Below the pieces are notes generated by a model. It was given only the letters and a program-made list of their open reading frames with translations, was not told where the DNA came from and did not search any database. Shown here piece after piece: positions 2,702 to 55,655 of a DNA stretch of 64,000 nucleotides (position 1 is its first letter; the number at the start of each line of letters is the position of its first letter). The stretch is from Minisyncoccota bacterium (lineage in GTDB: Bacteria > Patescibacteriota > Minisyncoccia > Phycocordibacterales > WO2-35-19), in contig DATDXE010000004.1 of NCBI GenBank assembly GCA_036517255.1, forward strand, positions 30,543 through 94,542, in the 5' to 3' direction. The position numbers and the translations under genes were made by a program.

Positions 2702-3261
2702 CATTTTGTCTTCTATTACTAGAAGTATGGACTATATCATCCCCATATATTCAAAATCGAACACTTAGGGGCGAGGCGCTTCGTACCAACAACATTGCTG
2801 GAACTACTCTCTTGCGAGATAGTCTCTACACCTTTCCCTTGATTACTCTCGGGACTTGGCTCGGGATTGCCCCTTAGGGGTTTCCCCGAATTCACCTCGT
2901 TTTTCAACCCAAATTTCTTCGGGAAGCTGCGTGATGCCGTCATGTACTTCCATATGACAATTTGCGCAAATCAAAACACATTTATCTATTTCTTTGCGTA
3001 TTTTTTCCCAAGATCGAGTTAAACCTCTTAAGGACAAGCCAAAATCTTTTTTAGCTGGATCCACATGATGAAAACTCAAAGCTCTTGAGCATTTATTGTA
3101 GCCACATATAATACACTTATTGCCTTTATAAGCTCTCGCCATTTCACGTAAATTTTTTCTTCTACGTTTAACAGCCATTCGCATATATTCAGCACGGTCG
3201 GCATAAGTTCTTTTTTCTTTCCTGGTATACATATTATAAGTATACCGCAGAACTTATCGAC
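2702..3261 (-). other. group I self-splicing intron in tRNA-Asn anticodon loop (between nt 35 and 36)
   Basis: 5' exon ends in U, intron ends in G (AAAAUG|); 3' part carries GUAGAGACUAUC (R-like) and GAUAUAGUCC (S-like) elements that can form P7; ORF in the 5' peripheral region. Confidence 0.75.
2843..3232 (-). CDS. intron-encoded HNH homing endonuclease
   Basis: 129 aa; CIICGYNKC...HHVDPAKK...CANCHMEVH (HNH His-Me finger with two CxxC pairs); starts 29 nt after the 5' splice site. Confidence 0.8.
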   Translation of the reverse strand: MYTRKEKRTYADRAEYMRMAVKRRRKNLREMARAYKGNKCIICGYNKCSRALSFHHVDPAKKDFGLSLRGLTRSWEKIRKEIDKCVLICANCHMEVHDGITQLPEEIWVEKRGEFGETPKGQSRAKSRE

Positions 3262-4477: not shown

Positions 4478-6295
4478 ATGGAAATTAGAAACATAGCCAT
4501 CATAGCCCACGTCGACCACGGGAAAACCACTTTGACCGATGCCATTCTTCAGCAATTCGGCGCAGCTGATACAGCGGTCAGTATGGACAGCAACGCTTTA
4601 GAAAAAGAGCGCGGCATTACTATTTACTCCAAAAATGCCTCGGTCATGTATAAAGGAACGAAAATAAATATCGTCGACACCCCGGGCCACGCCGACTTCG
4701 GCTCTGAGGTAGAACGAGTATTGCGTTCCATTGATTCCGTGCTTCTTGTTGTCGATGCTCAAGAAGGCCCGATGCCACAAACTCGTTTTGTACTGAAAAA
4801 ATCTTTGGAATTGGGAATCCGACCAATAGTGGTTATAAACAAAATCGACAAGCCAGCGGCCAACCCTAGTCGCACTCATGATGAAGTGTTTGACCTTTTC
4901 GCTGAACTCGGAGCAAACGATCTACAGCTCGACTTCCCTGTCATATACGCTATCGGGCGCGAAGGAATAACGATGAAAAATTTAGAGGACCAAAAAAGTC
5001 CATCAGCTAACGGAACCGCTCCCCTCCTTGATTTGATCCTCGAGCATGTGCCAAATGCTGCTTCCAATACCGAACCCAAATTCAAAGCTCAACCCTTCAA
5101 CCTGGCATACGACAACTTCCTTGGAAGACTGGCTATCGTCCGAGTCTATAGTGGTTCTATAAAATCAGGCGACAGTGTTTTTGTAAAAAAACAAGGCAGC
5201 TCAGTCGAACCTAAAAAATATAGAGTAACCAAACTTTTTACATTTGATGGCACACGTAGAGTAGACACGGAAAGCGTAAGTGTGGGCGACATCGCCATTA
5301 TGGCTGGCATTCCTGATATTTATATAGGCGACACTATAATCGACGACACTACAACACCAGCACTACCAGCGATACAGATAGATGAACCGACGATCAAACT
5401 TACTTTCCTGGTAAATAATTCCCCTTTTGCTGGTCGCGAAGGCAAATTTGTTACCAGTAGGCAAATCCGCGAGCGGCTAGAAAAAGAACTCGAAGTGAAT
5501 GTTGGCTTGAAAGTCGATTTTGATATCGGTAGTGGTGAACAATTTACCGTTTACGGAAGAGGTGAATTGCACATCGCTATTCTACTTGAAAACATGCGCC
5601 GCGAAGGATATGAAATGCAAGTATCCCAGCCGGAAGTAATAGTGAAAGAAATCGATGGCAAGAAGCACGAACCGTTTGAAGAATTGGTAGTCGACATACC
5701 GAATGAATATCAAGGGGTGGTGATCGAGAAACTTGGCAAGCGAGGTGCCCTGATGACCAAAATGCAAAACAACACTCAAGGCCAGGAGAAAAATATCACT
5801 ATGACTTTCGAAGGTCCAAGTCGTGGACTTTTCGGTTATCGCAGTAAATTTATTATCGATACAAAAGGAGAAGGGATACTCGCTCACCGAGTGCTCGGCT
5901 ACAGGCCATATGCAGGTGAAATAGAACGGCACGAAGCTGGCTCCATGATTTCCCAAGTTATGGGTAAGACTCTTGGCTACTCTCTCGACAACTTGCAAAC
6001 TCGCGGCACCCTTTACATAAAAGAAGCGACCGAAGTATACGAAGGTCAAGTTATCGGTAACACTTCCAAAGGAGAACAAATGACAGTCAACCCGACCAAA
6101 GGTAAACAGCTTACCAACATGCGCGCTTCAGGTTCGGATGAAGCCATCCGCCTCGTGCCTCCACAACTGCTCTCTATCGAATCAGGTCTGGAAATAATGG
6201 CCAAAGATGAGTATCTAGAAATCACTCCCATTAGCGTCCGCCTTCGCAAACAACAATTGACAGAGCTCGACCGCACAAAATCCAAGAGAAAGTAG
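4478..6295 (+). CDS. typA: translational GTPase TypA/BipA
   Basis: [33 protein letters not shown]-motifs and BipA-like C-terminal domain; ORF-track N-terminal extension (from 4424) judged an alternative-start artefact. Confidence 0.9.
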
Positions 6296-23259: not shown

Positions 23260-25257
23260 ATGCAACAAAGAAACGACTCAGGAAGATTCCGCATAAGAAG
23301 TTTTCATTCTGAAAGTGGGACAGAAAACACAGAGAGAACGGCGACAGGAGCTCCGACGAGAGAAAGGAGTCGGCCTTTTATCGCTGGTAGGCCAGCAAGT
23401 AATAGTGTGATCGCTCCCAGCAGAAGACCTATGACTCACCCAGGGGACAGGCCTCGAGTAGGAACGAGAGGACCATCGAGAGATCGTAGGCCATTTGTCA
23501 GGCGAGGTGATCGCCCGATACCACGCGATTACAAATTACCAGAGGCTAGCGCTCCCATAACTTTAAATATCCCTCCAGTCGGCGACAATATACGCATTAT
23601 TCCACTCGGTGGCACCGAGGAAATAGGCAAGAATATGACCGCCATCGAAATCGGTGATGATATTTTCGTCATGGATGCTGGTTTCCAATTCCGAGATGAG
23701 GATACCCCAGGAGTAGACTACATTTTACCGAACACAAAGTATCTTGAAGAGAGAAAAGAAAAAATACGAGGCGTACTCATAACCCACGGCCACCTGGATC
23801 ACATCGGCGGCATCCCCTACATCATGGATCGTATAGGTAACCCACCCCTTTACTCACGCCTACTCACGACTGTCATGATCAAAAAGAGACAGGAGGAATT
23901 CCCCCACTTACCACCTCTCGATATGCGAGTGGTAGAAAAAGAGGACACTATTATGCTCGGAAAAACGAAAGTGAGCTTCTTTTCCGTCACCCACACTATT
24001 CCTGATTCAATGGGTATCGTGATAGAGACTCCATATGGCCTCGTGGTAAACCCGGGTGACATAAAGCTTGAGCATGTGGACGGTGTACCGACAGAAAGAG
24101 AAGAAAAAGAATACGCAAGATTCAGTAAAGAAAAAGTACTCTTATTGATGATGGACTCGACCAATGTTGATAATCCTGGATTTTCTACCCCTGAAAAATT
24201 GGTGCATCAAAATTTGGAAGAAATAATAAAAAGCACCAAACGTCGACTCATAATCGGCACCTTTGCTTCCCAGCTTGAGCGCATGATCGCCATTATCGAG
24301 GCGGCAGAGCGTAATGGAAAAAAAGTGGTAGTGGAAGGCAGAAGTATGAAGCAAAATATAGAAATCGTGCGCGAGCTCGGTATGTTGAAAGTAGGCAAGG
24401 GTACCATCATCACTACAGAGGAAATGGATACTTTACCGCCCGACAGAGTTATCATATTGGCGACAGGCGCTCAGGGCGATGAGTTTGCCGCTCTAATGCG
24501 TATGTCATCCAAAACCCACAAATATATAAAAATCTCCAATCGCGACACCATACTACTTTCTTCCTCTATTATTCCTGGAAATGAAAGGTCAGTCCAAAAG
24601 TTGAAAGATAACTTGGCGCGACAAGGAGCAAAAATTATCCATTATCGTACCAGCGATGTTTATATCCACTCGACTGGCCACGGCAACCGAGGCGAATTGG
24701 AATGGATCCATAAAAAAGTAAATCCAAAATTCTTCATTCCGATTCACGGCAACCACTATATGCTCCGGGTACATGAGGAGTTGGCTCAAAATTTAGGCAT
24801 GCCTCCAGAGAATATCGTGGTACCTGACAACGGTATGATCATAGAAGTACAAGAAGGTGGCGAGAAAATAAAAGCTCTGAAAGAAACTGCTCCCTCATCC
24901 CCTGTTATGGTCGATGGATTTGCCATCGCTGATGTGCAAGAAGTAGTAATGCGCGATCGTAAAATGCTCGCGGAGGATGGAATGTTCGTCATCGTCGCGA
25001 CCATAAACTTGAAAACTGGTCGGCTTCGCAAATCGCCTGATATTATTTCTAGAGGTTTCGTCTATTTGCGCGAATCGCAAGAATTGATGCAACACGCTCG
25101 CCTTCTCATTAAGAAAACAGTGGAAGAAAGTGCTATGGGAATGAACCCAATCAATTTCGACTTTATCAAAGGTAATGTGACCGACGCCGTGGCTCGCTTT
25201 CTCTTCCAAAAAACCGCCAAAAGACCGATTGTGATTCCGGTGATATTGGGGGTTTAA
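23260..25257 (+). CDS. rnj: ribonuclease J with ~100 aa Arg/Gly/Pro-rich N-terminal extension
   Basis: IRIIPLGGTEEIGKNM, ITHGHLDHIGGIPY metallo-beta-lactamase motifs, beta-CASP and C-terminal domain. Confidence 0.9.
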   Translation: MQQRNDSGRFRIRSFHSESGTENTERTATGAPTRERSRPFIAGRPASNSVIAPSRRPMTHPGDRPRVGTRGPSRDRRPFVRRGDRPIPRDYKLPEASAPITLNIPPVGDNIRIIPLGGTEEIGKNMTAIEIGDDIFVMDAGFQFRDEDTPGVDYILPNTKYLEERKEKIRGVLITHGHLDHIGGIPYIMDRIGNPPLYSRLLTTVMIKKRQEEFPHLPPLDMRVVEKEDTIMLGKTKVSFFSVTHTIPDSMGIVIETPYGLVVNPGDIKLEHVDGVPTEREEKEYARFSKEKVLLLMMDSTNVDNPGFSTPEKLVHQNLEEIIKSTKRRLIIGTFASQLERMIAIIEAAERNGKKVVVEGRSMKQNIEIVRELGMLKVGKGTIITTEEMDTLPPDRVIILATGAQGDEFAALMRMSSKTHKYIKISNRDTILLSSSIIPGNERSVQKLKDNLARQGAKIIHYRTSDVYIHSTGHGNRGELEWIHKKVNPKFFIPIHGNHYMLRVHEELAQNLGMPPENIVVPDNGMIIEVQEGGEKIKALKETAPSSPVMVDGFAIADVQEVVMRDRKMLAEDGMFVIVATINLKTGRLRKSPDIISRGFVYLRESQELMQHARLLIKKTVEESAMGMNPINFDFIKGNVTDAVARFLFQKTAKRPIVIPVILGV

Positions 25258-25368
25258 CCCCACCCTTCCCTCCCCTTAGCAGGGGAGGGAAAACAAAATC
25301 CTCGAATCCGTAGCGTATTACCTCCCCTGCTAAGGGGAGGTCGAAGCGAAGCCCGGGTGGGGTTTATT
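25255..25368. repeat. GC-rich hairpin repeat element (MITE-like), copy A
   Basis: TIR TTAACCCCACCC...GGGTGGGGTTTA; internal hairpins CCCTCCCC-ttagca-GGGGAGGG and CCTCCCC-tgctaa-GGGGAGG; same modules recur at 54572-54630 / 55021-55072 and 34377-34431. Confidence 0.6.
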
Positions 25369-25425
25369 AACAACAAGGCCCGCCAGAGCGAAACCTGTTG
25401 GTTGTTGCTCTGGCGGGCCTCCGGA

Positions 25426-26099: not shown

Positions 26100-26106
26100 G
26101 AGTTTA

Positions 26107-26155
26107 CCAAGGGTCACCCTTGGCCCGAACCCCTTTGGCCAAAGGTGACCCTTGG
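26107..26155 (+). terminator. compound palindromic hairpin (CCAAGGGTCACCCTTGG ... CCAAAGGTGACCCTTGG)
   Basis: two inverted copies of the CCAAGGG-N3-CCCTTGG motif forming a long stem after rpsU. Confidence 0.5.
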
Positions 26156-26166
26156 TAATCAAAAAA

Positions 26167-27861: not shown

Positions 27862-29034
27862 ATGCCACAAATCAAGCCAGAGGTAGAAACATTTGCACGA
27901 ATAAAAGTCATCGGTGTCGGTGGTTCTGGAAAGAACGCTGTAAATCACATGATCAATTCCAAAGTAAAAGGAATTGAATTCGTAGCTATAAATAGTGACG
28001 CGCAGGACCTTCATCATTCTCTCGCCAAAAAGAAAATTCATATTGGCAAAAATCTCACTCGAGGCCTCGGAGCTGGAGGTAACCCCGATCTTGGCAAAAG
28101 AGCGGTGGAAGAAACTAAAGAAGAAATACAGGAAGCGATCAAAGGTTCCGACATGGTATTCATCACTTGTGGACTGGGAGGCGGCACCGGCACAGGAGCC
28201 GCTCCCATCGTCGCTCGTACAGCGAAGGAACTCGACGCCCTGACCGTAGCAGTAGTGACCAAACCATTTTCGTTCGAAGGAAAACAGAGGATGCAACTCG
28301 CTGAGCAAGGCCTCGATGAATTGCGTGGAGCAGTCGATGCCATCATCGTCATCCCAAACGACAGGTTGCTCGCGACCGTCGACAAGGACACTACGGCCAA
28401 AAATGCATTCTCAATCTGTGATGATATTTTGAAACAAGCAGTGGAAGGAATTTCCGATATTATCACCACTCCCGGCATCATCAATATAGACTTTGCTGAT
28501 ATCCGTAGTGTTATGGAAGGAGCGGGAGCAGCACTCATGGGCATAGGCAAAGCTTCAGGTGAACGCAGAGCGGAAGAGGCTGCCAAAATGGCCATCAACT
28601 CCCCTCTTCTAGAAGTTTCGATTACTGGGGCCAAAGGAGTACTTTTTTCCATCGCTGGGCAGGACGACCTTACTATGTTTGAAATACAAGAAGCGGCAAA
28701 GATTATCACCGAATCAGTTGATCCAAATGCTAAAATTATTTTCGGTACTGCTCACGACGACAAGCTACGTAAAGGTGAAATAAAAATTACTGTTATCGCT
28801 TCAGGTTTTCCTGAAAACTACATGAAAAAAGCTCTCTTCAGTGATAAAGAAGAGATGACTAAGGATAAAATATTCAATGCTATTCCAATTTTGAATAGAA
28901 ATAAAAAAGAGGAAGAAGAAATGATTTCCCCTGCAGTAGAACCAAAAAAAGAGGAGAAGAAGACGATACAAGCAGATGATGAAGATGATTGGAGTGCGGT
29001 TCCAGCTTTTTTGCGACGCTCGAAGTTGAAATAA
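27862..29034 (+). CDS. ftsZ: cell division GTPase FtsZ
   Basis: IKVIGVGGSGKNAVNHM, GGGTGTGAAPIVA tubulin signature, NTD/CTD, Lys/Glu-rich linker. Confidence 0.95.
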   Translation: MPQIKPEVETFARIKVIGVGGSGKNAVNHMINSKVKGIEFVAINSDAQDLHHSLAKKKIHIGKNLTRGLGAGGNPDLGKRAVEETKEEIQEAIKGSDMVFITCGLGGGTGTGAAPIVARTAKELDALTVAVVTKPFSFEGKQRMQLAEQGLDELRGAVDAIIVIPNDRLLATVDKDTTAKNAFSICDDILKQAVEGISDIITTPGIINIDFADIRSVMEGAGAALMGIGKASGERRAEEAAKMAINSPLLEVSITGAKGVLFSIAGQDDLTMFEIQEAAKIITESVDPNAKIIFGTAHDDKLRKGEIKITVIASGFPENYMKKALFSDKEEMTKDKIFNAIPILNRNKKEEEEMISPAVEPKKEEKKTIQADDEDDWSAVPAFLRRSKLK

Positions 29035-29039
29035 AAAAA

Positions 29040-29088
29040 CCAAGGGGGACCCTTGGTACAGTAGTCCAAAGGTCCCCCTTGGTTTTTT
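29040..29088 (+). terminator. rho-independent terminator
   Basis: CCAAGGGGGACCCTTGG-tacagtagt-CCAAAGGTCCCCCTTGG then TTTTTT. Confidence 0.7.
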
Positions 29089-31815: not shown

Positions 31816-31963
31816 GGTCTCCTCCTGGGAGTCTTATGTAAAGTTAAGCCTGTTCTAATTTTTGGAGTCAGGATTTACAGAAGGCTTTTTACGCGGTAGC
31901 TTCGCGTGCCTTTTTTATAGCGGGCAAGACAGACCGCTTTTTCAAAAGTTAATTAACCTTTGA

Positions 31964-32915
31964 ATTTAGACACTCCATAATTGGAGAATGAAAAAATTTA
32001 AACATTTAAGCTATGAGGAAAGAGTAGCAATCTCTTTTCTTCAAGCGGAAGGTTGGAGCACAAGAGATATTGGTGAAAAACTTGGTCGTCATCATTCCTG
32101 CATTGCGTACGAATTGAAAAAGAAAGTTAAAGGCTTGTATGTAGCCAAAAAAGCTCACTACAAGTCATATTGGAGAAGATATTTGAGCAAGAAACAGTGT
32201 ATGAAAGTGGCTCTGGACAGAGAGCTGTCCAAATTCATTCCGGAAAAGCTCAAGGAAGGTTGGTCACCCGAAAGAATATCGGGGTACCTCAAGCTTCAAG
32301 GGAAAACCGTATCAACCAAAGCTGTATACAAGTTTGTGTACAGTCGTTGTTTAGAAAGATTTCTGTTCTGGAGAAAACATCACAAGAAAAGTGGTTGGAA
32401 GAAAAAGAGATATGGCAAAGCCAGTGATGGCAGAAAATATATTGAAGAAAGACCAGCGACACTCTGTTCTGGTCACTGGGAGGGAGACTTCATTGTCTCT
32501 TCTCACAATACTTGTTCTCTTTTGGTCTTGGTTGATCGATATTCCAGAAATACCATCATCAAGAAAATACCAAACAGAAAACACGCAGTTGTAATGCGTG
32601 CTTTCCAAGATTCCTTGCGTCATATGCCGATCAAGACACTGACATTAGACAATGATATATCATTTAACTGTTGGAAGAAACTGGAACAAATACTTAAGTG
32701 TTCTGTGTATTTTTGCCACCCGTATCACTCTTGGGAAAAGGGATTGGTTGAAAACACCAACAGGTGGATTAGATGTTTTGTGCCCAAAAGGAAAGATTTG
32801 AGAGAAGTCACAGACTTGGAGCTTCATTCAACCGAAGAGTTTTTAAACGAAATTCCACGCCAATGTCTTGGATTCAAAACAGCAAAAGAGGTATTATTAA
32901 TTAATCAAAGTGTCT
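31964..32915 (+). mobile_element. IS30-like insertion sequence (boundaries approximate)
   Basis: short inverted match TAGACACT (31964) / AGTGTCTA (32905) flanking the transposase; longer TIRs not resolved by eye. Confidence 0.35.
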
Positions 32916-32917
32916 AG
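31988..32917 (+). CDS. IS30 family transposase
   Basis: N-terminal HTH (LSYEERVAISFLQAEGWSTRDIGEKLG), DDE region HWEGDFIVSS..LDNDISF..E. Confidence 0.85.
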   Translation: MKKFKHLSYEERVAISFLQAEGWSTRDIGEKLGRHHSCIAYELKKKVKGLYVAKKAHYKSYWRRYLSKKQCMKVALDRELSKFIPEKLKEGWSPERISGYLKLQGKTVSTKAVYKFVYSRCLERFLFWRKHHKKSGWKKKRYGKASDGRKYIEERPATLCSGHWEGDFIVSSHNTCSLLVLVDRYSRNTIIKKIPNRKHAVVMRAFQDSLRHMPIKTLTLDNDISFNCWKKLEQILKCSVYFCHPYHSWEKGLVENTNRWIRCFVPKRKDLREVTDLELHSTEEFLNEIPRQCLGFKTAKEVLLINQSV

Positions 32918-33157
32918 ATTGAGGGGTGGGGAAACGAAAGATCTTACGCAGATAGTGTAGCATATTATATATTATTTGTCAACAAGTTTTTCAGAACTAT
33001 GAATAAACCCTACTTATTTAAGGTTATTTAGTGGTTTTCGTTTATTTTAGATAAATTTTAGGAATATGGTTTCAGAACTTTTATATTTCTAAAATACGTT
33101 TAAAAACAAAGATAAAATTAATCTTTGTTCTGAAAAAAGTAGTATCATCCCTTTATG

Positions 33158-33361: not shown

Positions 33362-33396
33362 CGCCTTTGCCTCGCGGTAGCTCGGCTTCGGCGGAC
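33362..33396 (+). repeat. direct repeat copy 1 flanking tRNA-Ser(CGA)
   Basis: CGCCTTTGCCTCGCGGTAGCTCGGCTTCGGCGGAC; near-identical copy at 33487-33522. Confidence 0.5.
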
Positions 33397-33400
33397 CGAT

Positions 33401-33487
33401 GGATGGGTGGCTGAGTGGTTGAAGGCACCGGTTTCGAAAACCGGCATACTCGAAAGGGTATCGTGAGTTCAAATCTCACCCCATCCG
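33401..33487 (+). tRNA. tRNA-Ser(CGA)
   Basis: GGATGGG..CCGGT-TTCGAAA-ACCGG, long variable arm CATACTCGAAAGGGTATC, GTGAG-TTCAAAT-CTCAC-CCCATCC-G. Confidence 0.85.
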
Positions 33488-33522
33488 CCTTCGCCTCGCA
33501 GTAGCTCGGCTTCGGCGGGACA
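33487..33522 (+). repeat. direct repeat copy 2 flanking tRNA-Ser(CGA)
   Basis: CGCCTTCGCCTCGCAGTAGCTCGGCTTCGGCGGGAC. Confidence 0.5.
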
Positions 33523-33573: not shown

Positions 33574-34737
33574 ATGATAATCCTTGGAATCGAAACAAGT
33601 TGTGATGAGACGGCTATAAGTGTGGTGGAAGCTGAAGGAAATGAAAAAAATCCTAGTTTTAAAGTGCTTGGGTCAGCTATTCACAGTCAAGCAGATATGC
33701 ATTCTTTGTATGGTGGCGTGTATCCAAACTTGGCAAAGAGAGAACACACGAAAAACCTGCCAGCCGTACTTGAAACAGCATTGGAAAAAGCAAAGATGCC
33801 CGCCCGCCTCGCAAGCGAGAGCGTTGCGGGCGGGGAAATAAGCAAAATTGATGCGATAGCAGTAACGGTAGGTCCTGGGTTGGAACCAGCGCTTTGGACG
33901 GGAATTACTTTTGCAAAAGAATTGGCAGAGAAATGGAAAAAACCTCTTATCCCAACTAACCACATGGAAGGTCACTTGGCATCAGTCTTAATGAATTCAA
34001 AGAATTTTATTAAGCTGATGCCAAGTGATACAGTTTCAAAAGCACACCCTTTTGAAACTGTGCACATAAAATTTCCCGCCCTCGGCCTACTCATATCTGG
34101 AGGCCACACAGAACTAGTCTTACTTAAGAGTTGGACTGAGAAAGAAATAATTGGGGAAACCAAAGATGATGCTGTGGGCGAGGCTTTCGATAAGGTGGCA
34201 AGAATGCTCGGCCTCCCCTATCCTGGTGGACCAGAAATATCTAAACTTGCCTCAGAAGCCAGGGAACAGAACTTCCACTTGGAAACTAAGTTTCCAAGAC
34301 CGATGATAAAATCGGGAGATTTAAATTTTTCTTTTTCAGGATTGAAGACTGCTGTTTTATATTATTTGAGAAAACCCCATCCGGCACCTCGCAAAGCCTC
34401 TGACCACCTTCCCCTTGATCAGGGGAAGGAATACCAAAAGATCGCACGGGAATTTGAGGATGCAGTAGTCGAAGTTCTAATAGAAAAAACAAAGACGGCT
34501 ATTGCTCTTCATAATCCACATACTCTTATAATTGGCGGCGGGGTAATATCGAATAATTTAATACGAGAAAAATTTGAAGCATTAGTAAAAGAATATCCGA
34601 ATATGGAACTAAAAATTCCTGAAAAATCACTGACGACCGACAATGCTACTATGATCGCCATGGCCGGCTACCTCTCCTTCATAACCAAAAGCGCGCAACC
34701 AGAATTGCGCGCTCAAGGAAACTTAAAATATTTGTAA
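33574..34737 (+). CDS. tsaD: tRNA N6-adenosine threonylcarbamoyltransferase TsaD (Kae1/YgjD family)
   Basis: MIILGIETSCDETAISVV, HMEGHL, ASKH-fold layout; contains an in-frame repeat-derived insertion at 34377-34431. Confidence 0.9.
   Translation: MIILGIETSCDETAISVVEAEGNEKNPSFKVLGSAIHSQADMHSLYGGVYPNLAKREHTKNLPAVLETALEKAKMPARLASESVAGGEISKIDAIAVTVGPGLEPALWTGITFAKELAEKWKKPLIPTNHMEGHLASVLMNSKNFIKLMPSDTVSKAHPFETVHIKFPALGLLISGGHTELVLLKSWTEKEIIGETKDDAVGEAFDKVARMLGLPYPGGPEISKLASEAREQNFHLETKFPRPMIKSGDLNFSFSGLKTAVLYYLRKPHPAPRKASDHLPLDQGKEYQKIAREFEDAVVEVLIEKTKTAIALHNPHTLIIGGGVISNNLIREKFEALVKEYPNMELKIPEKSLTTDNATMIAMAGYLSFITKSAQPELRAQGNLKYL
34377..34431. repeat. GC-rich hairpin repeat copy embedded in-frame in tsaD
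   Basis: CCATCCGGCACCTCGCAAAGCCTCTGACCACCTTCCCCTTGATCAGGGGAAGGAA, about 90% identical to 54575-54630; translated as HPAPRKASDHLPLDQGKE. Confidence 0.55.
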
Positions 34738-34741
34738 GTTT

Positions 34742-37360
34742 TTACTCCCCTATAATACCTTTGAATCCTTTCTTTTCACCTTCTTCGGTTACTTTGTCTG
34801 TAAGAGAGCTCGGCTCTTCCACGACTAGAGTAGATATTTTTTCAAGCGAGGCATCATACGAATTATTTTTGATGGCTTCTTTATGAGCAGTGCCGTTACC
34901 GAAGAGGATCACGCCCATCACAATGAGAAAGACGATGACGAATGGCAGGATAGTACAGTAGTGAGCGAAGATAGCCGACAATGCTATAGCTACAATAAGA
35001 AAGATTGCGCTCCAGATAAGTTTCTTCCTGCGGATTTTCATTCTTTCCATTTCATCCCTAGCAGGACCGCCAGAGAATAGCGAAGCAAGGATATAGATGA
35101 CAGCAAGTACGATGAGGAAAACGATGGCACACTCTAACGTGTCAGAAAGACTTTCAGGAATAGAGAAAAGTGAGATAGCAGCATTCCTTAAAACATTAGT
35201 TCCTGCTATTTCACTTCCGTTTATAAAATCAGAATCTGTAGGGTTTTCTGATTCAGTAGAAGTACCGACTCCTATAGAGCCCGAAACATCAGGTATCACG
35301 CCTCCGTTCTCTTCTATATCTTGAATGAAGCTTCTGAAAGAATCGATTTCACTCTGATCTGAAGCAGAAAGGGGGTAGATAGTTTTACAGAATATTTCAT
35401 TTATTTTTTTCTTGGTAAGGATATACACATATCCAGTCGGAGCTGTGTGGCCCCACGGAGCAAGGATATCGTCAGAGTATTTATTCTGGAATCTCGACAC
35501 AGCATCGAAAGTAGCATCGTCAAAGTTAGCTGTGAAGGAAAGATTTTCTCCTTCAAAAGCATTGAGGAAAGATTGGAGTTTTAATACTTCAAGAGGATCA
35601 TTTTGCAAATCCTTTCTCAAATAATCACGCAAGTATGAACAGGTAGTAGCTCCTAGAACAGCACCGCCGCCTATGGTAGTAATGTCACGCCTATGACCAC
35701 CAAGGCCGCCGCCCCCACCTCCTCCGCCACCGCCATTACCCCCAGAATTATCAGTAGGAGGATTCGTAGGAGGAGTAGAAACAGGAGACACGATGACAGA
35801 CCTAGTTACAGAAGTAGAAAGGTTTCCAGAGTCAGTAACGGAATAGGTTACTTCATACGTACCGGCAACAGCTGTATTTACAGTAGTCGTAGTAGCAATT
35901 TCATCGGTCAAATTACCATCCTCAGTATCATTTGCAGTAGCACCTGGATCAGTGAAGGTATCACCTATTGTCAAATTCAAAGGATTGGCACCAATCAAAG
36001 TGATAATTGGTGGAGTGTTGACTGGAGGATTAACACTATTAGCAACATTCAAGGCAATACAATAATATGTATTACCATTCTGTGGATTCAAAACGTAATC
36101 ATAGTTGTCAAAATACAAAACATCCTGATTACAAAACAGTTCAGCACTTACAACATTAGTCTGTGCGTCATTATTTGCATATGGACCATAGAAAGGAATA
36201 TAGCCATTCTTTAATACTTCACGAATCCATACCTTGTCAGAACCTAGAGCCGCAGGAATATCGACTTGAGTTTTACCCTGACTATCAGTCAATCCAAAAG
36301 TAGTCCAGCCGCTACCCGCTGGTCCGACAAAAGATGAACCAGGATCAGTCACTGACTGGTAGCCCCACTCGAATTCCCATCCAGGCTGCAAGTGGCAAGA
36401 AGGATGAGAAGCGAGGAAATCGGAAGCAGTAGAAGCAGTTACATCAGGGCCTCCCACTCCCCAGTTCGGTAAATCGATTTCATTATTACAAACTATTTTT
36501 GTAGCGATAACGCGGAATGTCGTGGCAGGTTCCACAACTACAGTTCTATTAGCAGAGGCTGACGCCCCATCAGAATCAGTGACAGAATAACTAAGAACGT
36601 AATTTCCAGGAAGAGAAGTGTTGACCGAACCAGAAACAGTGATGGAAGAGGTCAAATTACCATCCTCAGTATCATTTGCAGTAGCACCTGGATCAGTGAA
36701 GGTATTACCAGCAATCACAGTAAAAGGATTGGCTCCCAAAAGAGTGAGCACCGGAGGATTGTTCACAGGTACTTCAGGACCACCGCCAGGATTCGTATTA
36801 CAGGTCACAGCCTCGGACTGTACGTTCAATTTAAAGAGTAGCCCGGCTGGATTTGATTGTGGAGTAGCCCCGTCCCAACCAAAATTTTTAACCTTAAAAG
36901 AAATGTTGTTTGAGCCTGTAGTCAAAACTGAACTGAGGTCATAACTATCTTTCTCCTCATCAAAATAATTTAACTCAGAATTATCTTGAGCAAATGGGTT
37001 TCCATTGACAGATATTTCGTAGCCATTGTCAGCGGCCACGATAAGGGAAGCTACAGTCGGAGTGCCGACTATATTAAAGGTGCGAGAAAAAGATGTTTCT
37101 TCATCGATAGTAGGGTTTTCAACAAGAACAGTCTTCCAAATCCAAGTAGCCCCAGGGATGCTTGCTGTCCAACGAGGGTTTGCAGAATATGTTGCTACAG
37201 CATTAGAATTATCAGAAAGAAGAGTGCTAGTATCACTCACTATTTCTAGATTACAAATAGCAAGTGCTTCGGAAGCACCTTCTTCAGCGAAGATAGAAAT
37301 AGGGCTCCCGATAAGTGTCACTACTACAAAAGCGGCTACAATGTTTTTGAATATATTCAT
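34742..37360 (-). CDS. large secreted/anchored surface protein with repeated Ig-like (DUF5011-type) domains, poly-Gly linker, PG-binding-like module and C-terminal TM helices
   Basis: signal peptide MNIFKNIVAAFVVVTLIGSPISIFA; two near-identical NPPVLTLLGANP..TFTDPGATANDTEDGNLT..YSVTDS repeats (56-nt identical DNA at 35906-35961 and 36650-36705); GGNGGGGGGGGGG. Confidence 0.7.
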   Translation of the reverse strand: MNIFKNIVAAFVVVTLIGSPISIFAEEGASEALAICNLEIVSDTSTLLSDNSNAVATYSANPRWTASIPGATWIWKTVLVENPTIDEETSFSRTFNIVGTPTVASLIVAADNGYEISVNGNPFAQDNSELNYFDEEKDSYDLSSVLTTGSNNISFKVKNFGWDGATPQSNPAGLLFKLNVQSEAVTCNTNPGGGPEVPVNNPPVLTLLGANPFTVIAGNTFTDPGATANDTEDGNLTSSITVSGSVNTSLPGNYVLSYSVTDSDGASASANRTVVVEPATTFRVIATKIVCNNEIDLPNWGVGGPDVTASTASDFLASHPSCHLQPGWEFEWGYQSVTDPGSSFVGPAGSGWTTFGLTDSQGKTQVDIPAALGSDKVWIREVLKNGYIPFYGPYANNDAQTNVVSAELFCNQDVLYFDNYDYVLNPQNGNTYYCIALNVANSVNPPVNTPPIITLIGANPLNLTIGDTFTDPGATANDTEDGNLTDEIATTTTVNTAVAGTYEVTYSVTDSGNLSTSVTRSVIVSPVSTPPTNPPTDNSGGNGGGGGGGGGGLGGHRRDITTIGGGAVLGATTCSYLRDYLRKDLQNDPLEVLKLQSFLNAFEGENLSFTANFDDATFDAVSRFQNKYSDDILAPWGHTAPTGYVYILTKKKINEIFCKTIYPLSASDQSEIDSFRSFIQDIEENGGVIPDVSGSIGVGTSTESENPTDSDFINGSEIAGTNVLRNAAISLFSIPESLSDTLECAIVFLIVLAVIYILASLFSGGPARDEMERMKIRRKKLIWSAIFLIVAIALSAIFAHYCTILPFVIVFLIVMGVILFGNGTAHKEAIKNNSYDASLEKISTLVVEEPSSLTDKVTEEGEKKGFKGIIGE

Positions 37361-37702
37361 GTTATTAATATCTCTAAATAATTTAATACCCCACAATTTA
37401 ATCTATTAACTTATCTCATGTATTAACATAATTGATAGAATATGTCAATAAACATACTAGGAAGTGTCAAGCGACCAAATGCTATTAAAGCCTTATTTAT
37501 CAACGTTTTTTAAAAAGGAGAAAAAATATTAAAATTTTGTCTTTTATAAATCCATATAATCCTAAAAAAGACTTACTTACTAGGTCCTATCAGATATAAA
37601 GGACAACTTACCTAAAAGACAAACTATGTCTTTTAGGTACAAAAGAGTCTATTTTTGCGTTTTTAGTCTTAAAGCTTATTATTAACAAGTAAATATATTG
37701 CT

Positions 37703-39796
37703 ATGAATAAAGAAGTTACAGAAAAACTTAGTAGGCCATATAACCCGAAGGAAATAGAAAATAAGATATACAAAATCTGGGAGAATTCTGGTTTTTTTAA
37801 TCCTGACAATCTTCCCAATAGCGGGAAGCCGTTCACTATCATAATGCCTCCCCCAAACGCCAATGGCAGACTTCATGCTGGTCATGCTCTTTTCATTACT
37901 TTGGAAGATATCATGATCCGCTACAAAAGAATGTGCGGCTTTAAAACTCTTTGGGCTCCAGGAGCTGACCATGCCGGTTTCGAAACTCAGATTGTTTATG
38001 AAAAAGAGTTAGAAAAAGAAGGAAGGTCTAGGTTTAATATGGACCCAAAAGATCTATATACAGAGATCCTTGATTTTACTCTCAAAAATAAATCGGTGAT
38101 GGAAAATGATGTACGGAGCTTGGGGGCTTCCTGCGACTGGTCAAGAGAAAAGTTTACCCTCGACGAAGATGTGGTGCTAGAAACTCAAAAAACATTCAAA
38201 AAGATGTTTGGTGATGGATTGGTATATAGAGGTTCAAGAATTATTAATTGGTGCACCAAACATCAGACTTCCCTATCAGAAGTTGAAACTGAATTTATAG
38301 AGAAGCTAGATGCTCTCTACTATATTAAATACGGACCTTTTACTATTGCTACCGCTAGACCAGAAACTAAGTTTGGCGATAAGTATGTAGTGATGCACCC
38401 GGAAGATCCCCGCTACAAGGAGTATGCAAATGGCGACAAACTAGAAGTGGATTGGATAAATGGCAAAATAGAAGCTACTGTCATCAAAGATGAGGCTATA
38501 GATATGGAATTCGGTACCGGAGTAATGACTATTACCCCTTGGCACGATGAGGTTGATTACAAACTTGCCGAAAAATACAACCTGGAAAAAGAGCAGATCA
38601 TAGACTGGCAAGGCAAACTATTACCGATAGCCGGAGAATTTGCTGGCATGAAAATAAAAGAGGCCAGGCCAAAGATAGTAGAAAAACTGAAAGAACTAGG
38701 CTTACTAATAAAAGTGGAGGAGAACTATAAGCACAATGTAAAAGTTTGCTACAAATGCGAAACCCCCATTGAGCCACAAATAAAAGACCAATGGTTTGTG
38801 AAGATGGAGCCCTTAGCCAAAGAAGCGGTAAAAGCAGTCGAAGCTGGCAAAATAACTTTTATCCCAGATAATTCTCGCAAGATTTTCCTTTACTGGATGA
38901 ATAACCCGATCGACTGGAACATCTCTCGTCAGATTGTTTGGGGTATACCGATACCAGCCAAAGTTTGTGACGCGTGCCACACAGGAGTGCCTGACTTGGA
39001 AAATAAAACAGACAAATGCGAAAAATGCGGCCAAGAGATGAGGCAAGACACTGACACCTTCGATACCTGGTTTTCTTCAGGCCAATGGCCTTATCTCGTA
39101 CTTGGTTATCCTGATTCTTCTGATTTTAAAAATTTCTATTCTACTGATGTGATGGAAACTGGGCGAGATTTAATATTTAAATGGGTTCCAAGGATGGTCT
39201 TCTTCGGCCTTTATCGCACAGGCCAAGTTCCCTTCCACACTGTTTATATGCATGGCTTAGTAAACGACGCCAAAGGCCAGAAGATGAGCAAGAGCAAAGG
39301 CAATGTTATCAGCCCTCTCACTCTAACCGAAAAATATGGCACCGATGCATTAAGAATGTCGCTCATTGTGGGCAATACTCCTGGCACCGACCTCTCTTTA
39401 TCAGAAGAAAAAGTCAACGCTTACAAAAAATTCGCCAACAAAATATGGAACGCTTCTCGTTTTGTCATCGAAAATACAGAACCAAGGGTGACCCTTGGTG
39501 ATGAAAACCAAAAAATAATGGAAGAATTCAACGCCCTGAAAAAAGACATCACTTTAGATATGGAAAACTACCGTTTCTATATGGCGTCCGAAAAAATTTA
39601 CCACTACTTCTGGCACACTTTCGCTGACGTTATTATTGAAAAATCAAAAAAAGATGCTTCTTTAAAACCCCTCCTCCGCCCTCTTCTCGAACAACAGCTC
39701 AAACTCCTCCACCCCTTCATGCCTTTCATCACCGAAGAAGTTTGGTCCCTCCTCGGTCACGATTCCCTTCTCATGATAGAAAAGTGGCCTGAGTAA
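37703..39796 (+). CDS. valS: valine--tRNA ligase (short form lacking C-terminal coiled coil)
   Basis: PPPNANGRLHAGHA (HIGH), KMSKSKGNVISP (KMSKS), CP1 editing region, Zn-knuckle CxxC pairs. Confidence 0.85.
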   Translation: MNKEVTEKLSRPYNPKEIENKIYKIWENSGFFNPDNLPNSGKPFTIIMPPPNANGRLHAGHALFITLEDIMIRYKRMCGFKTLWAPGADHAGFETQIVYEKELEKEGRSRFNMDPKDLYTEILDFTLKNKSVMENDVRSLGASCDWSREKFTLDEDVVLETQKTFKKMFGDGLVYRGSRIINWCTKHQTSLSEVETEFIEKLDALYYIKYGPFTIATARPETKFGDKYVVMHPEDPRYKEYANGDKLEVDWINGKIEATVIKDEAIDMEFGTGVMTITPWHDEVDYKLAEKYNLEKEQIIDWQGKLLPIAGEFAGMKIKEARPKIVEKLKELGLLIKVEENYKHNVKVCYKCETPIEPQIKDQWFVKMEPLAKEAVKAVEAGKITFIPDNSRKIFLYWMNNPIDWNISRQIVWGIPIPAKVCDACHTGVPDLENKTDKCEKCGQEMRQDTDTFDTWFSSGQWPYLVLGYPDSSDFKNFYSTDVMETGRDLIFKWVPRMVFFGLYRTGQVPFHTVYMHGLVNDAKGQKMSKSKGNVISPLTLTEKYGTDALRMSLIVGNTPGTDLSLSEEKVNAYKKFANKIWNASRFVIENTEPRVTLGDENQKIMEEFNALKKDITLDMENYRFYMASEKIYHYFWHTFADVIIEKSKKDASLKPLLRPLLEQQLKLLHPFMPFITEEVWSLLGHDSLLMIEKWPE

Positions 39797-41033: not shown

Positions 41034-41048
41034 CCAAGTAACCAATAA

Positions 41049-41065
41049 CCAAGGGGGACCCTTGG
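41049..41065. terminator. CCAAGGGGGACCCTTGG hairpin between convergent genes
   Basis: same palindrome family as 26107 and 29040. Confidence 0.5.
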
Positions 41066-41305
41066 TTATGCGGGAATACCCAGTAAGCTAGCTACCTTTT
41101 CTTTCTGAAAACCGATAATTATATCGTTATCGATTTGAATGACAGGTACGCCAAGCTGACCACTTTTTTGGACCATATCTTTACGAGCCTCAATATCACT
41201 CGCTACATCTATATTTTCAAACGGGATATTGCTCGCAGTAAGGAACTCCTTGGCCATAGCGCAAAAATGGCAGGTCGGAGTGGAATATATTTTTACGGTT
41301 TTCAT
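41066..41305 (-). CDS. glutaredoxin-like protein
   Basis: 79 aa; CHFC active site, GVPVIQI cis-Pro region. Confidence 0.7.
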   Translation of the reverse strand: MKTVKIYSTPTCHFCAMAKEFLTASNIPFENIDVASDIEARKDMVQKSGQLGVPVIQIDNDIIIGFQKEKVASLLGIPA

Positions 41306-53434: not shown

Positions 53435-54559
53435 ATGAAAGAAAAGGAAGATATAGAAAAGATAGAGGAAGAAACAGAGGATGCGGTAAAATCAAAAAAG
53501 GAATCAGCAATGGGCAAGATTATGTCCAATTCATCCCTCCTGCCTGAAGTGGGCGAACTGGTGGAAGGCCCAGTCATCGGGATTGAAAAAAACGCAGTGT
53601 ATGTCGACCTCGCTCCTTGGGGCACAGGCATCATTTTCGGGCGTGAGTATATAAATGCTAGAGATTTGATCAAGAAAATAAACATTGGCGACAATGTAGC
53701 CGGTAAAATCGTCGGGCAAGACAACAAAGAAGGTTATGTCGAAATTTCACTGAAAGAAGCTCGCCAAGCTCTTATCTGGAACCAAGCTGAAGAAGCAATC
53801 AGGGATAAAACAGTATTTGAATTACCAATCCTAGAAGCAAACAAAGGTGGTCTCATGATTTCGTGGCAAGGGATCACTGGTTTCTTGCCTGCTTCCCAAC
53901 TAAAAACGGAACACTATCCACGAGTAGCCGATGGCGATAAAGACAGAATCTTAGACGAACTGCGTAAACTAGTGGGCCAGAAAATCGCGGTATCTATCAT
54001 TACCGCTGTTCCAAAAGAAGGAAAACTTATATTTTCTGAGAAAAATATCGAGAGTAAAGAGAAGACAGCCATCATCGACAAATATGTGTTGGGTGATGAA
54101 ACTCTTGGAGAAGTCACTGGTATAGTTGACTTCGGAATATTCGTAAAACTGGAAGAAGGCCTGGAAGGCTTGGTGCATATTTCTGAAATCGATTGGGGCC
54201 TAGTCGATGATCCTAGAAAATTTGCTAAAGTGGGCGACACTGTAAGAGTAAAGATAATAGAAATCAAAGATGGGAAAGTATCGCTCTCGATCAAAGCCTT
54301 GAAAGATAATCCTTGGACAGAAGCAGCCAAGAAATATAAAAAGGATGACACGGTAACAGGAGTAGTCATCAAATTCAACAAACACGGAGCCTTAGCTTCG
54401 ATTGAAGAAGGTATCGCTGGTCTTGTACATATCTCCGAATTTGGTTCCGAAGAAAAGTTGCGCGAAAAACTCGAGCTCGGCAAGACTTACAACTTCAAGA
54501 TCACAGTCTTCGATCCAAAAGAACAAAAGATGGCTCTTGCATTCTTGGAGAATAAATAG
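53435..54559 (+). CDS. rpsA: 30S ribosomal protein S1 (four S1 domains) with acidic N-terminal tail
   Basis: repeated S1 OB-fold units (GxV..I..FGxFV.L..G..GLxHISE). Confidence 0.85.
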   Translation: MKEKEDIEKIEEETEDAVKSKKESAMGKIMSNSSLLPEVGELVEGPVIGIEKNAVYVDLAPWGTGIIFGREYINARDLIKKINIGDNVAGKIVGQDNKEGYVEISLKEARQALIWNQAEEAIRDKTVFELPILEANKGGLMISWQGITGFLPASQLKTEHYPRVADGDKDRILDELRKLVGQKIAVSIITAVPKEGKLIFSEKNIESKEKTAIIDKYVLGDETLGEVTGIVDFGIFVKLEEGLEGLVHISEIDWGLVDDPRKFAKVGDTVRVKIIEIKDGKVSLSIKALKDNPWTEAAKKYKKDDTVTGVVIKFNKHGALASIEEGIAGLVHISEFGSEEKLREKLELGKTYNFKITVFDPKEQKMALAFLENK

Positions 54560-54571
54560 GTGAGGTTAATA

Positions 54572-54630
54572 AACCTCATCCGGCACCTCGCAAAGCCTCG
54601 GGCCACCTTCCCCTTAGCAGGGGAAGGAAA
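54572..54630. repeat. GC-rich hairpin repeat, left arm flanking DUF559 gene
   Basis: AACCTCATCCGGCACCTCGCAAAGCCTCGGGCCACCTTCCCCTTAGCAGGGGAAGGAAA. Confidence 0.55.
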
Positions 54631-54639
54631 TCCAAAGAC

Positions 54640-54999
54640 CTAGATACTATTTAGGCTCTTCTTGATTCTTGTTAGAACTTTGTAAACATCAGTATCAACC
54701 TCTGCGTTTGAAAATCTCAAGACTTTATAGTCGAGATCAGTAAAGAATTTATTCCTGACATGATCATATTCTCGAGCCTCTTGTGTGTGGTGAACTTCCC
54801 CGTCTATTTCTAAAACCAATTTCTTCTCAGCACAATAAAAATCTAGAATGTAGCCTCCGACACTATGCTGTCTTTTGAATTTAAAATCTAAATTTCTATC
54901 TTTTAGATGCCACCACAAAACTCTTTCTTGCGCGGTTTCCCTTTTTCTCAAATCTCTGCGCCAATCTCTCAATTTTGGTAAATTGTTCAGCCTTTGCAT
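54640..54999 (-). CDS. DUF559 (Vsr-like) endonuclease-domain protein
   Basis: RETAQERVLWWHLKDR..FKFKRQHSVGGYILDFYC..KLVLEIDGEVH..D..R...L...G..VLRF.N.EV classic DUF559 pattern. Confidence 0.75.
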   Translation of the reverse strand: MQRLNNLPKLRDWRRDLRKRETAQERVLWWHLKDRNLDFKFKRQHSVGGYILDFYCAEKKLVLEIDGEVHHTQEAREYDHVRNKFFTDLDYKVLRFSNAEVDTDVYKVLTRIKKSLNSI

Positions 55000-55020
55000 A
55001 CTATGATGATATTTTGTTCC

Positions 55021-55072
55021 CGATTTACCTCTCCTGCTAAGGAGAGGTCGAGACGATAGTCCGGGTGAGGTT
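55021..55072. repeat. GC-rich hairpin repeat, right arm flanking DUF559 gene
   Basis: TTACCTCTCCTGCTAAGGAGAGGTCGAGACGATAGTCCGGGTGAGGTT; end is inverted match of left end (AACCTCATCCGG / CCGGGTGAGGTT). Confidence 0.55.
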
Positions 55073-55610
55073 AATTGAATCTGTTCATCGCTATTTCCCT
55101 GCCTTCTTCTACAATAGTTTCTATCGCCTCTGAAACCAACTTAAAAGTTTTCTTCAGTGTTTCGTTCTGCTTCGGAGTAAAGTTACTCAAAATAAAATCA
55201 ATAACTTCTTTTTCACCCTGAGGTTTTTTAATTTTACCTGAGGGAGTAGCAGGAGAAACTCCAATTCTAACTCGAGTAAACTCTTTAGTCTTAATAGATT
55301 TGATGATCGATTCTAAACCTTTGTGGCCACCGCTACTTTTATCATAAGAAATTTTTATAGTACCGAGAGGTAAATCCATATCGTCATAAACCACGATCAA
55401 ATCTTTGGCGGTTTTTTTTGACTTAATATATTTAACTACCGCTTTACCAGAGTGGTTCATGAATTCGCCACTCTCAATAATTTTGATTTTATTTCGGAAT
55501 TCAGACTTTGAGCTTTTAGCTTCAAAACATTCTACTGCCATTTTGCCAGTATTATGCCTACTTTTTGTATATTCTTCTCCCGGGTTCCCTAGTCCGACAA
55601 CATATATCAT
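55071..55610 (-). CDS. pth: peptidyl-tRNA hydrolase
   Basis: MIYVVGLGNPGEEYTKSRHNTG (catalytic His), D91-like region; earlier ATG 55637 also possible. Confidence 0.85.
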   Translation of the reverse strand: MIYVVGLGNPGEEYTKSRHNTGKMAVECFEAKSSKSEFRNKIKIIESGEFMNHSGKAVVKYIKSKKTAKDLIVVYDDMDLPLGTIKISYDKSSGGHKGLESIIKSIKTKEFTRVRIGVSPATPSGKIKKPQGEKEVIDFILSNFTPKQNETLKKTFKLVSEAIETIVEEGREIAMNRFN

Positions 55611-55655
55611 AGAAAATAGATTATAGGCCAAAATCATGTATAATGGAACCCAATT

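Follow-up and report, generated by a model that had tools for sequence, protein, structure and literature searches.

An in-frame member of an otherwise intergenic hairpin repeat family in a loop of the tsaD gene of a Minisyncoccota bacterium

Proteins of the Candidate Phyla Radiation (CPR), or Patescibacteria, are known for unexplained lineage-specific insertions. Where does the DNA of such an insertion come from, and what keeps it in place? These questions are raised by the tsaD gene in a stretch of 64,000 nt from a Minisyncoccota bacterium, a groundwater organism with a small genome (GCA_036517255.1, contig DATDXE010000004.1, positions 30,543-94,542, forward strand; G+C content ~42%), hereafter called the window, in which a member of a hairpin-forming repeat family (family B) lies within the coding sequence. 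All coordinates are window positions unless they follow the label of a retrieved locus or contig (Lnnn), and ortholog proteins are labelled Pnnnn. The genome stretch examined comprises the window and ~20 kb of added flanks, ~84 kb in total. The features on which the argument turns are the following.

33574..34737, plus strand: tsaD, the host gene, encoding a subunit of the tRNA t6A37 threonylcarbamoyltransferase (387 aa, from the ORF list)
34372..34434, plus strand: intragenic family-B copy, a half-unit covering codons K267-Y287
54566..54636, plus strand: closest intergenic copy, of the same subfamily as the tsaD copy, with the extra CACCTCGCAAAG
55020..55075, minus strand: intergenic family-B copy, inverted, with the hairpin ACCTCTCCT-TAGC-AGGAGAGGT
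25253..25297, plus strand: intergenic family-B copy, left half of an inverted doublet, with the hairpin TTCCCTCCCCT-TAGC-AGGGGAGGGAA
25312..25372, minus strand: intergenic family-B copy, right half of that doublet, pairing with 25253..25297
54640..54999, minus strand: gene with a DUF559/Vsr-like endonuclease fold, 119 aa (Pfam DUF559, 112 bits; NCBIfam DUF559)

The host gene belongs to the TsaD/Kae1/Qri7 family by full-length homology and by its metal-binding, GGH and TDN motifs. TsaD structures in the PDB were matched at E values of 1e-57 to 1e-67 over residues 2-370, the motifs HMEGH (metal-binding HxxxH), SGGHTE and TTDNATM are all present, and homologs bear PF00814. Its closest full-length relatives in the databases share 62-64% protein identity and, where a source is named, are labelled metagenome-assembled genomes of Patescibacteria or of a Candidatus taxon. 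The exact protein is present on 13 contigs, and the element is identical in six contigs that were assembled independently from different samples and with different assemblers. Because the same DNA recurs in these six contigs, the element in tsaD is not an assembly artefact; a strain-level comparison of presence and absence found zero tsaD variation among the six, i.e. the element is fixed in the sampled population.

A blastn-short comparison of tsaD with the remaining window gave a single significant match, in which 34372-34431 aligns to 54571-54629 with 55/60 identities (91.7%, one gap, E=1.7e-14), and weaker similarity extends to about 34441/54640 (63 of 73 aligned columns). The initial annotation had described a 55-nt segment about 90% identical to 54575-54630; the resemblance is real, but the segment measures 60-70 nt. 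The 20-mer CCGGCACCTCGCAAAGCCTC is common to the tsaD and 54.57-kb copies only, being absent elsewhere in the window even at three or fewer mismatches and contained in 0/100 shuffles. Similarity stops at the borders of the element, and the flanking tsaD sequence was not copied along with it. As had been proposed, the reading frame stays open across the repeat, which forms part of an uninterrupted ORF of 387 aa: the segment 34372-34431 is translated as KPHPAPRKASDHLPLDQGKEY, its open-frame reading being KPHPAPRKASDHLPLDQGKEYQK, and in the context of tsaD it reads ...YYLRKPHPAPRKASDHLPLDQGKEYQKIAREFEDAV...

Members of family B share a layout of a terminal motif (T)AAACCYCAYCCGG, in short form AACCYCAYCC, a variable spacer, a hairpin CCYTCYCCT-TAGC-AGGRGARGG and a tail RAAWWC. 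The tsaD copy follows it with the 5' terminal motif AAACCCCATCCGG (34372-34384), the spacer CACCTCGCAAAGCCTCTGACCA (34385-34406), the hairpin CCTTCCCCT-TGATC-AGGGGAAGG (34407-34429) and the tail AATAC; its hairpin loop differs from that of the 54.57-kb copy by a 1-nt indel (TGATC vs TAGC). It possesses the left terminus only and lacks the right terminal repeat, and is therefore a half-unit, with a fold of weak significance (z -1.3 as RNA, -2.2 as DNA). The identity of a canonical intrinsic terminator was considered for the element and rejected for want of a T tract: neither strand was flagged as a Rho-independent terminator at the tsaD element, its tails being AATACCAAAAG and GTGGTCAGAGG. Rfam recognised no known RNA family at any family-B copy.

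The other members of the family in the window are four intergenic copies arranged as two inverted doublets, all of them 0-55 nt past a stop codon and in the orientation of the gene that ends there. The copy at 54566..54636, which with the tsaD copy makes up the subfamily marked by the extra CACCTCGCAAAG, begins 7 nt past the TAG stop of an S1-domain gene (53435..54559) and fills the 80-nt spacer up to the stop of the convergent DUF559 gene. In two of the four the TAA of the motif is itself the stop codon: at 55020..55075 the TAA of the 5' motif TTAACCTCACCCGG ends a peptidyl-tRNA hydrolase gene (55071..55637), and at 25253..25297 the TAA in TTTAACCCCACCC ends the RNase J gene (23260..25257). 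At 25.3 kb the doublet is bounded by terminal inverted repeats that match perfectly over 10 bp (AACCCCACCC/GGGTGGGGTT), and all 125 nt of the unit fold into a single long hairpin (z=-7.6 as RNA, -6.4 as DNA). Three stem positions vary between copies on both sides with pairing kept (CCTTCCCC/GGGGAAGG, CCTCCCC/GGGGAGG, CCTCTCC/GGAGAGG); these compensatory changes were read directly from the sequences, as MAFFT had aligned the hairpins out of structural register and its alignment was not used for counting pairs. The ~20 kb of added flanks held zero further family-B copies. The 20-mer, scanned as an exact pattern against GTDB species genomes and JGI metagenome contigs, returned six chance matches in unrelated taxa with unrelated flanks, the pattern being too specific for the purpose.

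The DUF559 gene lies exactly between two inverted family-B units (54566-55075), in the geometry of the gene-less 125-nt doublet at 25253-25372; the element may exist here in a version that carries cargo, or a gene may have been inserted into a doublet. Two neighbours were tried as sources of the family and rejected. The 3' end of the nearby tRNA-Ser shares ACCCCATCCG with the 5' motif, at local alignment scores not above those of 200 shuffles, and the IS30-family element upstream of tsaD has different inverted repeats.

Within TsaD the repeat segment is placed between the GLKT motif and IAREFEDAV, in the variable loop to which the initial annotation had assigned it. The solved TsaDs (8iey; Thermotoga maritima 6nak) have a gap of 13-14 residues exactly at the insert. 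Among the 120 best TsaD orthologs, whose loop was measured from GLKT to AREFED, the modal loop has 17 residues, against 31 here: 55 of 119 have short conserved loops, of 17 residues in 36 and of 20 in 19, and empty loops carry conserved sequences such as LRDKKEINKLAV and AVLYYLRDKKEINKLAV. The stretch homologous to the repeat spans 21-23 codons and the net gain is 11-14, so that ~8-10 ancestral codons were overwritten; the insertion was not a clean one, the truncated half-unit having displaced these codons of a 17-residue ancestral loop. When mapped onto structure, as had been suggested, the insert is predicted to form a disordered loop between two helices. In the AlphaFold model (mean pLDDT 81.5) residues 270-281 fall below 50 and are flanked by helices at 255-266 and 282-313, and the remaining two internal segments below 50 (80-86, 143-157) coincide with two further TsaD inserts.

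The same loop is filled by related DNA elsewhere. In ~22 of the 120 orthologs the loop peptides are translations of the same hairpin at the same codon, e.g. SPLPLSRGGG, IPSPDQGEG, FPPLTKGRV and PPLLDKERGLGG; ~19 of these ~22 were classed as family B from their peptides only. A family-B insert was confirmed at the DNA level in L021, L022 and L023, all syntenic loci. There the inserts start at the codon of the window insert, after TTG AGR xxx, share the terminal motif ACCTCACCC and are complete units, with 12-bp terminal inverted repeats (GACCTCACCCCC/GGGGGTGAGGTC in L021) and two internal hairpins in a Y-shaped fold (z=-7.5 in L021). An alignment of orthologs had been suggested to see whether the insertion is lineage-specific; it is not unique to this lineage, and family members fill this loop in many related genomes. 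Nor do these orthologs provide the case that would speak for coincidence, namely the same peptide in genomes devoid of repeat copies: orthologs with SPLPLSRGG and IPSPDQGEG exist, and in L021 and L022, for which the flanking DNA was at hand, intergenic copies of the same family are present.

Those intergenic copies share genome-specific features with the tsaD copy of their own genome. In L021 the tsaD copy and an intergenic copy at 17.9 kb have CCCCAGCCC...GGGGGAGAA.AGAA..AGTTCT in common, and the window tsaD copy shares 86-92% identity with the 54.57-kb copy of its genome vs 58-60% with the tsaD copies of other genomes. Filled and empty alleles of tsaD appear interleaved among relatives, as judged from pairwise identities of the gene core, the neighbour-joining tree being poorly resolved. 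The core of the filled P0029 is 85% identical to the empty-loop P0098 and P0108 and 75-80% to other filled alleles; P0086 with P0064 and P0093 with P0021 follow the same pattern. In one empty/filled pair, L024 vs L021 (80.6% nt identity), 24 nt are replaced by 87 nt. L021 and L022 share 72.1% identity in the gene core (46.6% at third codon positions) and 90.8% in the insert (79/87; 25/29 third positions, 86%; P about 1e-5). As the insert is more conserved than its host, it is either younger than the divergence of the host genes or constrained at the nucleotide level.

Three further comparisons returned nothing. The tsaD inserts of L017-L020, which are palindromic and of other sequence types, had no significant match in their own 15-21-kb loci. 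An exhaustive HMMER search with the 30-residue L021 insert peptide, a query too short and of biased composition, found no match at E<=0.001. A search of 5.8 billion proteins with a concatenated six-frame peptide query matched nothing, not even the TsaD of the window, and is hence uninformative.

Taken together, we favour, with a probability of about 0.6, a REPIN/MITE-like repeat that sits in tsaD as a tolerated coding passenger, copied in or renewed from the repeats of the same genome (REPIN, doublet of repetitive extragenic palindromes, REPs; MITE, miniature inverted-repeat transposable element). Family B would be a small non-autonomous palindromic repeat composed of the terminal motif, spacer and G+C-rich hairpin, complete units bearing the motif as terminal inverted repeats or forming inverted doublets, with short spacers just past stop codons as their home. 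A copy of the local subfamily, of the 54.57-kb type, would have been written into tsaD by copying within the genome, through transposition in trans or through gene conversion or template switching, two routes that are not separable here, and the event would have replaced the ~8-10 codons. Its survival would be due to the absence of stop codons, a length divisible by three and a position in a solvent-exposed loop that links two helices. Ribosomes would then read through the repeat and produce a disordered loop of 21 residues rich in proline, glycine and charged residues, which for TsaD is most likely a tolerated passenger and not an adaptation. Across the clade the same permissive loop would be occupied or refreshed repeatedly, each time by the genome's own variant. 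The initial annotation had spoken of a mobile hairpin repeat turned into coding sequence: a family that is otherwise intergenic, with four such copies in the window, is indeed translated here, and its mobility is suggested by the copy pattern and the architecture.

A possible reason for insertion at this very codon is offered by its left flank. TTGAGR, which encodes conserved Leu-Arg codons to the left of the tsaD insert, resembles the right terminal repeat of the family, (G)GTGAGGT (regions 34366-34384, 54559-54583 and L021 10706-10730), and the 54.57-kb copy has GGTGAGGTT at the equivalent place, where it pairs with the left terminus. TTGAGR may act as a pseudo-end that directs insertion to that codon, on a match of ~5 nt that is possibly due to chance.

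Several observations weigh against a passenger copied in from the repeat population. No target-site duplication is recognisable at the L024/L021 pair, and family B counts only five copies in ~84 kb of genome. A tblastn search of the window and its ~20 kb of flanks found no REP-associated tyrosine transposase (RAYT), and no transposase of family B was found there. The databases hold no relative above 62-64% protein identity by which the event could be dated in the lineage. Across the ~84 kb of this genome and nine related loci (~130 kb), tsaD alone has coding family-B copies, always at one and the same codon and in one orientation, which a model of random insertion plus filter alone does not predict. 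Finally, the conservation of the insert above that of its host gene fits recent acquisition and, equally, purifying selection on the nucleotides for a function.

This last point leads to the strongest competing explanation, namely that the element is retained for a role as nucleic acid, either as a binding site for a protein that recognises the family elsewhere too or as a hairpin that stops or processes antisense transcripts running into tsaD from the convergent gene for a surface protein. On the sense strand the hairpin would be melted by ribosomes during translation, so that it would act only on untranslated antisense RNA or as DNA. We regard this as unlikely but worth serious consideration. 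It would account for the identity of the L021 and L022 inserts (90.8%, 86% at third positions, vs 72% and 47% in the core), for the Y-shaped fold kept in L021, L022 and L023 and for the constant loop, codon and orientation across many lineages. At every locus examined tsaD abuts or overlaps the convergent gene, a terminator-like hairpin of the minus-strand gene already lies within tsaD (34714-34689), and L019 has an A-tract/GC-hairpin/T-tract sequence in the same loop. However, the hairpin of the element lacks a T tract on both strands and went unflagged in the terminator prediction, a short empty loop is found in 55 of 119 orthologs with the same convergent arrangement, and the window copy is a truncated half-unit that folds weakly (z -1.3 as RNA, -2.2 as DNA).

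It is rather improbable that the direction was the reverse, with an old, vertically inherited tsaD copy and a recent 54.57-kb copy produced by ectopic conversion onto an existing family-B hairpin. Such a course would explain why the subfamily-specific 22-nt spacer is shared by these two copies only and why the tsaD loop TGATCA equals that of the L023 tsaD copy, unlike the TAGC of the intergenic copies in the window. Yet the three other intergenic copies mark intergenic DNA as the usual home of the family, further members of the subfamily may sit in the genome beyond the ~84 kb examined, and the similarity ends at the element borders with no flanking tsaD sequence copied along.

Selection on the protein, for which the insert would be a Pro/Gly-rich flexible linker or a loop contacting a partner and its repeat origin history only, is very unlikely. 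Similar peptides (PLPLSRGG, IPSPDQGEG, LPLDQGKE) do recur in many orthologs, but the same DNA is read in different frames, the 5' motif giving KPHP here and LTSP in L021-L023, third codon positions are conserved as strongly as the others, the loop is predicted to be disordered and many close relatives lack a loop insert. Chance similarity or a chimeric assembly is refuted by the E value of 1.7e-14, the absence of the 20-mer from all 100 shuffles and the six identical contigs from varied samples and assemblers.

TsaD loop 3 is not the only place where hairpin repeats are translated. A second family, family A, with the hairpin ACCAAGGGNGACCCTTGGT, occupies five intergenic sites of the window, some of them as doublets, and has a sixth copy in-frame in the valyl-tRNA synthetase (ValRS) gene, at 39481-39499, encoding EPRVTLGD. 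Its sites and the transposase genes in question are listed here.

26104-26158 and 29034-29088: family-A doublets, REPIN-like, intergenic
41045-41069: further family-A site in the window
L017 11025-11080 and 15445-15463: family-A sites in a relative
L018 7873, 9617 and ValRS loop: family-A sites in a relative
L021 4380-4400, 5039-5059 and ValRS loop: family-A sites in a relative
L021 4420-5076: RAYT-like Y1 transposase gene, flanked by hairpins of family-A type, not of family B
31956-32927: IS30-family element, transposase at 31988..32917 (NCBIfam transpos_IS30, 199 bits)

The same ValRS loop holds genome-specific variants or doublets of family A in L017, L018 and L021, the L018 variant matching that genome's own intergenic ACCAAGGACTCTCCTTGGT, and TsaD loop 4 of L017 contains a family-A doublet; these in-frame copies in the ValRS loop and in L017 TsaD loop 4 each match the variant of their own genome. 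The L021 transposase scores 34.8 bits with Pfam Y1_Tnp, above the gathering score, and 57.6 bits with NCBIfam REP_Tyr_transpos, below its cutoff of 80. One could speculate that in this clade genome-specific REP-like families keep loops of essential genes filled with the variant current in each genome (family B in TsaD loop 3, family A in TsaD loop 4 and the ValRS loop), as functional nucleic-acid sites that co-evolve with a trans-acting protein and whose nucleotides are conserved beyond the codons of the host. We consider this doubtful; if true, intragenic copies might, for example, bind proteins or terminate antisense transcripts from within coding sequence, and such repeats would have given rise to a large proportion of the lineage-specific 'insertions' typical of CPR proteins.

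The tsaD gene is a hot spot of palindromes in general: 6 of the 30 perfect hairpins (stem of at least 9 bp) of the 64-kb window lie within its 1.16 kb (P=1.5e-5), whole-window block shuffles giving a background of 5-9, and the orthologous genes in L017-L020 have at most one each. Their positions are as follows.

33799-33834: perfect hairpin in tsaD
33972-34028: perfect hairpin in tsaD
34030-34061: perfect hairpin in tsaD
34278-34298: perfect hairpin in tsaD
34407-34429: perfect hairpin in tsaD
34690-34713: perfect hairpin in tsaD

The first is a G+C-only hairpin, CCCGCCCGC-N18-GCGGGCGGG, of exactly 36 nt or 12 codons (PARLASESVAGG); it is precisely an insert missing from the closest orthologs and from the solved TsaDs, is unique in the window and folds with z=-4.1 as RNA. 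TsaD insert 2 (33972-34061) consists of two adjacent near-perfect palindromes with arms of 27 bp (z=-8.3) and 13 bp. In the first of these the left arm is formed by the conserved GHLASVL codons and the right arm encodes the inserted IKLMPSD, as if flanking coding DNA had been duplicated in inverted orientation. In L020 (about 4330-4480), an ortholog of 62% identity, both hairpins persist in degenerate form (MFE, the minimum free energy, of -37 vs -60 kcal/mol), and the structure is therefore old and maintained.

Around the gene, tsaD and the convergent gene for an 884-aa Ig-like surface protein (34742..37396) are 4 nt apart, with an overlap of 4-8 nt in relatives, and the terminator-like hairpin of the minus-strand gene, with a T-rich tail, lies inside the C-terminal coding region of tsaD. 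The IS30-family element has 19-nt imperfect inverted repeats and adjoins tRNA-Glu and tRNA-Ser just upstream of tsaD. The tRNA-Ser(CGA) gene (33401-33489) is bracketed by a 33-nt direct repeat CGCCTTYGCCTCGCRGTAGCTCGGCTTCGGCGG (33362-33518); in contig L005, from another sample, the tRNA gene and one repeat copy are missing and 33394 is joined to 33486, which is a deletion or insertion polymorphism of the tRNA gene mediated by the repeat. Farther away, a group I catalytic intron (Rfam, 76.6 bits, E=1e-17) at 2709-2997 on the minus strand overlaps a 129-aa ORF (2843..3232). Just past the right end of the window (L015 4167-4511) a gene of the 23S_rRNA_IVP family (four-helix bundle) has a branched-chain amino-acid permease gene on either side and is situated in a run of five paralogous genes for periplasmic binding proteins.

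For one CPR protein insertion the source of the DNA can thus be named, a palindromic repeat family of the same genome, and the same process appears at three loops in two essential genes and several related genomes, which suggests a concrete route for the origin of new protein loops. What is unusual is that filled and empty alleles appear interleaved among close relatives and that third positions of the insert are more conserved than those of the host gene; these two features make the choice between a passenger and a functional DNA or RNA site directly testable. In practical work on CPR proteins, inserts of this kind can be a source of error when alignments are trimmed, phylogenetic markers are used or structures are predicted.

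Among known systems, the GC clusters of yeast mitochondria are G+C-rich palindromes in an A+T-richer genome, spread through intergenic regions and occasionally found in coding or rRNA sequence. These clusters and the repetitive hairpin elements of sponge mitochondria (PMC2800124) are G+C-rich hairpins that spread likewise, in a different type of host and with unrelated sequences, and the likeness is one of analogy only. Closer in architecture are the MITEs, small non-autonomous units with terminal inverted repeats, which in family B are present as 10 bp perfect (25.3 kb) and 12 bp (L021 tsaD), the window tsaD copy possessing its left terminus only. Neither a target-site duplication (L024/L021 pair) nor a parent insertion sequence with matching ends (IS30-family element, 31956-32927) was found. 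ERIC, BOX, Correia and Anabaena MITEs can sit in or fuse to ORFs, and SPRITE is a terminator-like repeat (PMC10969869); a preference for gene ends and occasional in-frame fusions are features that family B shares with MITEs (PMC10969869). In contrast to SPRITE, family-B hairpins lack the T tract of a Rho-independent terminator.

REPs and REPINs are extragenic by definition and number hundreds per genome (Bertels & Rainey 2011, PMC3116915; PMC3337134; PMC5581495). Like them, family B comprises short imperfect palindromes in extragenic spacers and inverted doublets that fold as one hairpin (PMC3116915); doublets of this kind are found at 25253-25372, in the 54.6/55.05-kb pair and in family A at 26104-26158 and 29034-29088. 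Genome-specific 'master' sequences and the hairpin-flanked RAYT-like Y1 transposase in L021 likewise recall REPIN-RAYT systems. Unlike REPs and REPINs, family B has one coding copy among the five counted in ~84 kb; a cognate RAYT was found neither in the window nor in its flanks, and the L021 gene is flanked by hairpins of family-A type.

The Rickettsia palindromic elements (RPEs; Ogata et al. 2000, Science 290:347, and 2002, Genome Res 12:808), as summarised in PMC10969869, are a palindromic family that occurs in intergenic regions and in-frame inside conserved protein genes, with units of about 100-150 nt and 44 insertions in unrelated genes. Family B resembles them in being both intergenic and in-frame in conserved genes of a small-genome host, and in occupying sites that keep the frame open and are compatible with the protein fold (PMC10969869): non-coding copies are present in the same genome, and the insert is stop-free, in-frame and at a permissive site. 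It differs from the RPEs in its shorter units, ~60 nt for a half-unit and 80-125 nt when complete. It differs also in having coding copies at one tsaD codon and not in many unrelated genes, family A adding ValRS and TsaD loop 4, and in filled and empty alleles that appear interleaved, with each genome's own variant. The comparison is by architecture alone, and a sequence relationship across phyla is not expected. By analogy, then, the tsaD insert would be a functional counterpart of the Rickettsia palindromic elements, with a structure like that of REPIN or MITE units.

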